From IMG/VR virus record IMGVR_UViG_2778261574_000002: a stretch of 64,000 nucleotides of DNA. One strand, 5' to 3'. The notes beneath the pieces are model-generated. The model made no database searches and was not told the DNA's origin. It worked only from the letters and a program-made list of their open reading frames with translations. The DNA comes from a virus (Duplodnaviria > Heunggongvirae > Uroviricota > Caudoviricetes). Within the stretch, counting starts at the first letter, position 1. Every line of letters begins with the position of its first letter. Below, piece after piece: positions 30,480 through 31,147 of this stretch. The position numbers and the translations under genes were made by a program.

Positions 30480-31147
30480 CTTGCCGGGTACGTCTCCGGC
30501 GAGGGCTTCCACCTCCGTATGCTTTTCGGCGCACCGCGCCCTGGCTGCAATTCGGTAACAGGGGATGCACAACCCTGGCTTCCAACGTGATTAGCGCCTT
30601 CAGCATGACGGGATATACCCGTAGTAGGACGTTATCTTCAAATTGCTAAAAGCAATTGCTGTTACGCAGAATGAAAAAGGACGTAACAGGTAAGGACGCT
30701 GACCAAAAAGATGGCCCCTTCTCGCTCATCTGGTTAATCGAACCAGCGCCCTTACCTGTTGTGCCTCCCCGTTCCCTAATACACAGACGGGGACACTCTG
30801 CGGTCGATTTTTTGACGGGGGACGACTCATACCCCGTGGCGTCTGGCTTCTTAGGCCGCTACCATCATCAGATCATCGTTTGCATTTACTTTAATGGTCA
30901 GTTTCTAAACCGCCGCAAAGTCGCTAACCATGACGAAAACCCTGAAAAAAACGCCCACCCGAAGATGGGCAAACTGGAAGCTCGTAACGCACTTCGGTGT
31001 TGCCACTTAGGCGTATGGTCAACCTGGCAACTCGGCGTCATGATGGGGAAGGAGTCACTACCCCGCCATACTTGCCGCCGCGCCTGTCGCGGCTAACAGC
31101 TAAATCGCTCTATAAATCACGATTCATTGATGCGATATTACACTAAT
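30480..31147 (-). other. ORF-free structured leader region, candidate non-coding RNA
   Basis: ~670 bp with no minus-strand ORF of 60 aa or more; several GC hairpins (CCCCGT..ACGGGG) and a tRNA T-arm-like CTGGTTCGATTAACCAG; only + ORFs lack ribosome-binding sites. Confidence 0.3.

Follow-up and report, generated by a model that had tools for sequence, protein, structure and literature searches.

A P1-like phage-plasmid carries, behind its C1-controlled ban promoter, a tmRNA-like module that has no tRNA-like domain and recurs in unrelated phages

Here we determined that the region between dmt and the tRNA genes of a P1-like phage-plasmid consists of a chain of RNA modules that follows the C1-controlled ban promoter. 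Within this chain lies a tmRNA-like module (30942-30761, minus strand) with no tRNA-like domain, as delineated by BLAST, a pattern scan, sub-threshold Rfam matches and covariation. Positions are those of the window, the whole 64-kb stretch of DNA that was analyzed. We regard as evenly balanced the proposition that the module is a tmRNA-derived RNA that keeps the mRNA-like half, has no tRNA-like half and acts on or through host trans-translation, by a mechanism that we infer.

The region downstream of the ban promoter is non-coding and highly structured

The window is a P1-like phage-plasmid; over positions 30400-31200 it matches E. coli plasmid NZ_CP124376 at 100% identity and phages P1, P7 and SJ46 at 90-93%. 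In the sense order, which is that of the minus strand, dmt (31155-33419) is followed by the region at 30480-31147 and then by tRNA-Arg, Tyr, Thr, Ser and Met. These five tRNA genes (Met, Ser, Thr, Tyr and Arg-UCU) occupy 28279-30478; the same locus in P1 holds Asn, Thr and Ile, and the tRNA that adjoins the leader is swapped, being Arg in the window and Asn in P1. Across the whole window, Rfam models at gathering thresholds returned tRNAs, sok and C4 only, with the P1-type C4 RNA, the C4 targets and sok located elsewhere in the window.

A first-pass annotation of this DNA had reported a perfect C1 operator directly upstream of the region, and this was borne out. The 17-bp Oban a (Op72a; ATTGCTCTAATAAATTT, 31164-31148, minus strand) is identical to the annotated P1 operator in Oban(Op72)/P1ban, and it overlaps the P1ban -35 hexamer (TTGCTC, 31163-31158, minus strand). 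Alignment to the P1 annotation also places the -10 hexamer (TAATAT, 31140-31135, minus strand) and the second half of the bivalent operator, Oban b (ATTACACTAATAAATTT, 31137-31153, plus strand). Over the 36 bases that span both operators and the promoter hexamers, the window does not differ from Oban(Op72)ab/P1ban as annotated in P1.

The same annotation described 30480-31147 as free of minus-strand open reading frames of at least 60 aa, and the longest we found are indeed 47 aa (30898-31041) and 45 aa (30469-30606). Looking for coding conservation in homologues, we found that the 146-aa plus-strand frame with a TTG start (30656-31096) is intact in 3 of 58 distinct homologous sequences and broken in 55; in most other homologues there is a stop no later than codon 4, a length indivisible by three, or the two together. 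The other plus-strand frame, at 30347-30649, is antisense to the tRNA-Arg and tRNA-Tyr genes. The region is thus non-coding, as had been claimed. Its description as highly structured also holds, since the 657-nt RNA folds at -245 kcal/mol (z = -3.2; 0 of 20 shuffles equally stable) and alignments contain compensatory changes. In a comparison of 58 distinct P1-group sequences, conservation is higher over most of the leader than at the dmt end and in the adjacent tRNA gene.

Two further suggestions stand in part. A "long leader" is correct for the location and misses the content, which is a tmRNA-like coding module together with a leader resembling the dicF locus. For an unannotated RNA co-transcribed with the tRNA and helicase genes, the RNA is indeed unannotated and lies upstream of the tRNAs and ban on the same strand; co-transcription would follow from the ban-operon annotation of P1.

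Leader part 1 resembles the dicF locus and ends in a terminator-like hairpin

Leader part 1 (31128-30972, minus strand) has two stem-loops in its core, and part of it is annotated in P1 as a "dicF-like region". The core (31092-30995, minus strand) shares about 81% identity with a lambdoid-phage sequence that lies directly 5' of dicF and ahead of dicB; in these phages the counterpart belongs to the early-left operon, downstream of the repressor. In mEp460 and HannyBb this alignment continues straight into the DicF sequence. The P1 annotation is therefore explained by homology of the leader core to the sequence 5' of dicF; DicF itself (RF00039) gave no match with the Rfam covariance model at E up to 10, and its body is absent from the leader. 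At their dicF locus, lambdoid prophages share with the P1 group an element of about 97 nt with two stem-loops, just 5' of a terminator-ended small RNA; the difference is that the P1 group is without the DicF body and has another short hairpin and U7 instead. One leader stem carries a compensatory C-G to U-A change, reading GUUGCCA/UGGCAAC in the P1 group and GUUGUCA/UGACAAC in lambdoid phages.

The element at 30995-31092 (minus strand; also loci L213, L215, L216 and L217) is kept in an Actinobacillus phage record as well and falls outside every Rfam family. It could serve in its own right in processing or antitermination. Comparison of leader part 1 with the put-type antiterminator of HK022 gave no similarity in one HK022 stretch, which may not include put, and no Rfam family was matched.

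Leader part 1 ends, directly before the tmRNA-like module, in a GC-rich hairpin resembling an intrinsic terminator (GCCCAUCUUCGGGUGGGC, 30971-30945, minus strand), which was located by pattern scan and has an 8-bp stem followed by U7. An equivalent hairpin and U-run lies ahead of the module or of a long hairpin in T1-like and lambdoid loci. The T1-like loci (L097, L099, L105, L108, L115, L147 and L194) have a small terminator-ended unit (...AAGCCCUGAG..CUCGGGGCUUUUUUAUUGG) followed by a long hairpin and the module, an order that parallels the terminator-ended leader and module of P1.

Anatomy and covariation of the tmRNA-like module

Using the canonical structure of E. coli ssrA for orientation, we evaluated the closing helix, the helix-5-like hairpin and the H-type pseudoknot in an alignment of 35 sequences (A2). 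The proposed structure is paired in 84.6% of cells, compared to 31-45% with slid partners, and its covariation score is 0.31, compared to 0.06-0.10 for slid partners; 0 of 500 shuffles scored as high. Nearly every pair of helix 5 and of both pseudoknot stems changes on both sides.

The 5' strand of the putative P2-like closing helix (ACUUUGCGG, 30921-30913, minus strand) pairs with 30803-30795 (CCGCAGAGU). Its 4-bp core is paired in 96% of cells among the 35 sequences with changes on one side only, and the full 9 bp occur only in the P1 and N4-like classes. The helix-5-like hairpin (30864-30837, minus strand) holds the stop codon of the tag-like frame in its loop; its outer helix is paired in 100% of cells, and 4 of its 4 pairs change on both sides. 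The H-type pseudoknot follows (30836-30803, minus strand), with stem 1 formed by 30836-30832 and 30820-30816 (97.7% paired, three covarying pairs) and stem 2 by 30826-30823 (GUCG) and 30806-30803 (CGAC), where loop bases pair across an A-rich linker (88.6% paired, all 4 pairs covarying). A pseudoknot 1 upstream of the tag was not found in the module.

At the position of the tmRNA T-arm there is instead a terminal hairpin (30792-30767, minus strand) with a variable stem and a conserved loop, GUGUAUUAG in the window and GUGUGAUUAAUAA in most phages. Stems as different as UCCCCGU/ACGGGGA, GCCCUGA/UCAGGGC and GGCGGGAG/CUCCCGCC all carry this same loop, which constitutes covariation of the stem. 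The first-pass annotation had proposed looking for compensatory base changes by comparative alignment, and they are present in helix 5, the pseudoknot and the terminal hairpin. We discarded a kissing contact of the terminal-hairpin and helix-5 loops, as its covariation was not consistent.

The tag-like frame is conserved in coding-like fashion

The module contains a tag-like frame, GCA AAC GAT GAT CTG ATG ATG GTA GCG GCC TAA (30883-30851, minus strand), which reads ANDDLMMVAA* and has neither a start codon nor a Shine-Dalgarno sequence. It is preceded by the invariant A-rich context UAAAU, a resume context of the tmRNA type, and an in-frame UAG lies 8 codons upstream of the GCA. Among the variants listed there are at least 33 distinct nucleotide versions of the tag encoding 17 peptides, every one with 10 sense codons and a stop. 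The peptides include ANDDVVLMAA, ANEEMYLAVA, ANDEQFLAVA and ANDNEFKVAA. Many of the differences are synonymous, with ANDDVVLMAA alone occurring in six synonymous versions, and the stop changes from UAA to UAG twice among the 33. At the peptide level, acidic residues at positions 3-4, a hydrophobic middle and an A/V-A end are kept. Codons are not respected at the variable positions 5' of the GCA. The tag is conserved in coding-like fashion, as if it were decoded. The phage tags also resemble those of true two-piece tmRNAs recovered by the same search (ANEESFLMAA and ANDERFLAAA), and ARAGORN recognized the "resume consensus" of the tag only at 80% thresholds.

The module is widespread among unrelated phages

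A sensitive BLAST search of 30479-30975 against phage records returned 293 records, including unrelated families, in which the module is 70-88% identical. Beyond the P1 group, the matches listed are all confined to window positions 30941-30748. Carriers include P1-like phages, Gamaleyavirus (N4-like), Ackermannviridae, Drexlerviridae, T1-like phages, Caminolopintovirus, lambdoid phages and others, infecting Klebsiella, Salmonella, Escherichia, Serratia, Cronobacter, Erwinia and Aeromonas; the hosts among the matches listed by name are Enterobacterales and Aeromonas. A scan for the module pattern found at least 120 viral contigs, and with other loci at least 111 distinct variants. The module is unannotated in nearly every match listed.

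In its various genomes the module sits in non-coding RNA operons beside tRNAs, terminator-like hairpins and repeated long hairpins. Several phages have a sigma-70 promoter about 10 nt before its 5' end. It is also present in phages that have no ban operon, where it follows its own promoter or lies in a lambdoid late leader, and phage D6 has kept the module with a different upstream region. Escherichia phage PD205, which is N4-like, has about 2.6 kb free of coding sequences (locus L088, 491-3087) containing the module and a long hairpin, along with several odd tRNA-like sequences with good T-arms and poor anticodon arms.

Kinship with two-piece tmRNA and absence of the tRNA-like domain

With the two-piece tmRNAs (Rfam RF01849 alpha_tmRNA, RF01850 beta_tmRNA and RF04321 tmRNA_permuted) the module shares the A-rich resume sequence UAAAU|GCAAACGA, a 10-codon tag running to Ala-Ala, a stop in the helix-5 loop, a pseudoknot with an A-rich linker right after the tag, and a putative closing helix. 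It differs from them in having no acceptor-strand pairing, T-arm, CCA partner or pseudoknot 1, and its terminal hairpin is a different one with a conserved 13-nt loop. In every phage tested, the permuted-tmRNA models of Rfam hit the region of the resume codon and tag with E-values of 4.5e-4 to 0.06, but below threshold (24.1-33.5 bits against the 47-bit gathering threshold of RF04321), and the alpha and beta tmRNA models align onto the pseudoknot region. No family in Rfam 15 reaches threshold for the module. The model of one-piece tmRNA, RF00023, scored E. coli ssrA at 296 bits as a control and did not match the module, and Smith-Waterman comparison with E. coli tmRNA gave nothing significant beyond the resume codon GCAAACGA. 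The 5' tail of the module may nevertheless be reminiscent of the D-loop analogue of tmRNA.

No member has a tRNA-like domain, that is, an acceptor stem with G3-U70, a T-arm and a 3' CCA. At default settings, ARAGORN called the E. coli ssrA control and 91 of 120 tag-pattern tmRNA matches, among them genuine two-piece phage tmRNAs, and called no tmRNA in the window or in any phage locus tested. At 80% thresholds it offered three placements of a tRNA domain, which we distrust because they were mutually inconsistent. The complement of the conserved 5' strand has no consistent position within 2.5 kb among about 100 variants, and T-arm hairpins on the minus strand of the 64-kb window are limited to the five tRNAs and one long-hairpin tip. 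The complete 48-kb genome of Cronobacter phage CS01, which carries the module, yielded neither a tRNA nor a tmRNA, nor any hairpin with a canonical T-loop (TTYRANN loop, 5-bp stem). Manual attempts to build an acceptor stem from the terminator hairpin upstream, from the A-rich linker of the pseudoknot (AAAAUCGACC in the P1 group) or from the long hairpins gave no candidate that held across classes and none with G3-U70. Where a sigma-70 promoter lies about 10 nt upstream of the module, it leaves no room for an upstream acceptor piece.

Genuine permuted two-piece tmRNA genes do occur in viral contigs (loci L253, 8773-9179, and L255, 10401-10792). Their excised intervening hairpin (GUAAGCAUA...UAUGCUUAC) is like the arms of the long hairpins described below and has the same place, just before the coding piece.

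The tmRNA of mycobacteriophage DS6A is, like the module, a phage-borne truncated form that is incapable alone of complete trans-translation (PMC4131195, PMC11915505). The two are mirror images, as DS6A keeps the tRNA-like domain without the tag whereas the module keeps the tag domain without the tRNA-like domain. A DS6A-type tmRNA inhibits host tmRNA (PMC4131195, PMC11915505). The full-length tmRNAs of the mycobacteriophage Bxz1 group and Bacillus phage G are likewise phage-encoded and related to ribosome rescue, but they are complete and detected by ARAGORN. Two tmRNA databases whose searches included phage or virus genomes list phage tmRNAs only from mycobacteriophages and Bacillus phage G, and describe tag-less forms and none without a tRNA-like domain (PMC4131195, PMC11915505); none was reported from P1 or other enterobacterial phages (PMC4131195). 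In the full-text literature searchable without a subscription, we found no description of a tmRNA-like RNA in P1 or the other carrier families. We are aware of no precedent in which a tmRNA coding domain functions with its tRNA-like domain neither covalently nor stably attached.

A conserved 5' motif is complementary to the host tmRNA tag

The 5' end of the module has a nearly invariant motif, (G/A)GUUUUCG(UC) or (U)AGUUUUCG(UC) (30942-30932, minus strand), with complementarity to the tag of host tmRNA. In the window, the 9 bases at 30940-30932 (GUUUUCGUC) form the complement of tag codons 3-5 (GAC GAA AAC) in enterobacterial tmRNA. When 60 representatives were compared with E. coli tmRNA, this motif provided the longest perfect complement in 55, at 8-11 nt against tmRNA nt 96-106. 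The target, tag codons 3-6 (GAC GAA AAC UA), is identical in 24 of 25 sampled tmRNAs encoding ANDENYALAA. In a shuffle control with a single sequence, complements of 9-10 nt arose somewhere in 3-15% of shuffles and 8-nt complements in about half. Since such complements arise in shuffles and this one was found after the fact, the pairing is a lead, and annealing of the motif to host tmRNA is suggestive only.

Long hairpins and the distal leader

Directly after the module is the long hairpin LH1 (AACAGGUAAGGGCGCUG ... CAGCGUCCUUACCUGUU, 30760-30685, minus strand), which shows compensatory changes relative to phage PD205 and has the same stem sequence as a hairpin in the lambda late leader. It belongs to a repeated type of hairpin that flanks the module and tRNAs in many phages; the arms of this type are near-identical (CACAACAGGUAAGAGCAUUG ... 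CAGUGCUCUU(U/A)CCGUUGUG), whereas the tip varies. The window has two copies (30685-30760 and 30142-30228, minus strand) and lambda has one (locus L339, 488-563), right after tR' in the late leader. These hairpins may be punctuation signals for RNase P or RNase III, or a recombination joint. An integron attC-like reading was rejected, as the core sites do not fit.

Some long-hairpin tips contain a canonical T-arm. The T-arm-like element reported earlier does exist, at 30746-30730 (minus strand; CTGGTTCGATTAACCAG), and forms the variable tip of LH1; it is not conserved, P1 reading CTGGTGTGATTAACCAG there. The suggestion of a degenerate tRNA is not supported, the look-alike being two bases off the P1 sequence GUGUGAUUAA within that variable tip, and neither ARAGORN nor Rfam covariance models called a tRNA inside 30479-31147. 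The motif GUGUGAUUAA, which is the loop motif of the terminal hairpin in most phages, recurs in the P1 long-hairpin tip, which suggests a common ligand or tertiary contact.

The remaining hairpins of the leader, up to tRNA-Arg (30684-30479, minus strand), are found in P1-group phages only, and 30620-30481 is almost invariant. One of these distal hairpins is kept by compensatory replacement, with GUGCUUAACAGCAC in P1 and AAUUGCUUUUAGCAAUU in the window.

Proposed role of the module

In the reading that we favor, the C1-repressed ban promoter would transcribe the whole chain of modules, and because of this repression the RNA would be made at prophage induction or in lytic growth. Transcription from Pban would have to proceed through the terminator-like hairpin, and processing would release the RNA. 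The position of the module just upstream of the phage tRNAs, on the same strand, suggests that it is made together with them. The module would have kept the closing helix, resume context, 10-codon frame, helix-5 stop and downstream pseudoknot of a tmRNA and lost the tRNA-like half, without which charging with alanine is impossible. As the tag seems to be decoded and the RNA could not be charged, either host components would be needed or there would be no translation. We propose that the module would work with host tmRNA, SmpB and stalled ribosomes, as well as with the phage tRNAs encoded downstream. We favor its docking onto host tmRNA or SmpB, its 5' end being complementary to tag codons 3-6, and docking could either block host tagging, with the module as a competitor, or cause the phage-specified tag to be used, with the module as a surrogate template. 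Several points count against a tmRNA-derived role, namely the terminator-like hairpin between promoter and module, the one-sided changes in the closing helix, the position of all Rfam scores below the gathering threshold, the lack of significant similarity to E. coli tmRNA past the resume codon, the frequency of comparable 5' complements in shuffles, the splitting of the module by TnpB in three relatives and the absence of a known precedent.

In a more specific version, the module would supply the coding piece for a chimeric tmRNA that forms in trans. The 5' end would anneal to codons 3-6 of the host tag and borrow the alanine-charged tRNA-like domain and SmpB of the host, such that ribosomes rescued during infection would append the phage tag (ANDDLMMVAA or a related one) instead of ANDENYALAA, the ClpXP degron. 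If so, the fate of truncated proteins in the infected cell would be re-programmed; we consider this version unlikely.

We considered several other explanations. The module could be a relic or structural scaffold, a captured tmRNA fragment retained solely because its fold spaces the tRNA and ban transcript or aids its processing (through stability, RNase sites or antitermination), with a tag that is never decoded. The absence of a tRNA-like domain fits such a scaffold, as does the constant setting in non-coding RNA operons near tRNAs, terminator-like hairpins and long hairpins, and the partial overlap of the tag with helix 5 means that RNA structure alone constrains some codons. However, synonymous third-position changes also occur outside helices (GUU, GUA and GUC at codon 5, for example), the 33 listed versions contain no frameshift or internal stop and always keep UAA or UAG, and the tag-like peptide pattern is maintained. 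The roughly 30 nt around the resume codon are also invariant in unrelated phages, beyond what a spacer would need, and we consider a relic somewhat unlikely. If the tag is translated, as it appears to be, the module could alternatively be one half of a self-sufficient two-piece phage tmRNA with its acceptor piece (T-arm, acceptor strand and CCA) encoded elsewhere in the phage. The best partial Rfam matches are to the permuted families, and the genuine permuted tmRNAs of viral contigs have similar tags and a similar layout of the coding piece. Against this are the lack of an acceptor piece upstream or within 2.5 kb in about 100 variants, the restriction of minus-strand T-arm hairpins in the window to the five tRNAs and one long-hairpin tip, the CS01 genome without a canonical T-loop hairpin, and the sigma-70 promoter about 10 nt ahead of the module in several phages, which together leave a two-piece tmRNA very improbable.

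The location between Pban and the tRNAs and ban, together with the terminator-like hairpin, would also fit the "long leader" of the first-pass annotation in the form of a purely cis-acting leader or attenuator of the ban operon. But the module is present in phages that have no ban operon, under its own promoter or in a lambdoid late leader, and D6 has it behind a different upstream region; such a role thus seems quite improbable. A degenerate tRNA or small protein gene, for which the T-arm-like hairpin at 30746-30730 and the two plus-strand frames had spoken, can practically be dismissed, as the look-alike is not conserved even in P1, no tRNA was called and the 146-aa frame is broken in 55 of 58 sequences.

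Returning to the tmRNA-derived reading, a tmRNA coding domain without a tRNA-like domain suggests an undescribed way for phages to manipulate ribosome rescue or tagging, and would supply the counterpart so far missing for DS6A and its domain-only tmRNA. P1 is among the best-studied phages, yet the module is unannotated beside its "dicF-like region", and the carriers amount to hundreds of sequenced phages, some of types used in therapy. The module also bears on phage tRNA clusters, as it travels with them in a translation-support cassette. The hypothesis can be tested directly, with easy P1 genetics, a repressor-controlled promoter and tag peptides that can be searched for by mass spectrometry.

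Rearrangements at the module and its flanking hairpins

An IS605-family TnpB gene (Pfam OrfB_IS605, with a Cas12f1-like TNB domain) lies inside the module at locus L038 (5110-6285), and also in L032 and L076. The insertion point corresponds to window position 30905/30904, at UUUAG|AAAC, and the sequence 3' of it is only about 80% identical to the window. As TnpB splits the module in these three relatives, prophage maintenance does not need the module. In another P1-like relative (locus L081, approximately 5090-5250, compared to window 30760-30140), the first long hairpin contributes its 5' arm and the second its 3' part to a single fused hairpin, and the three intervening tRNA genes are missing. 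This joint looks like the product of recombination between the repeated hairpin arms.
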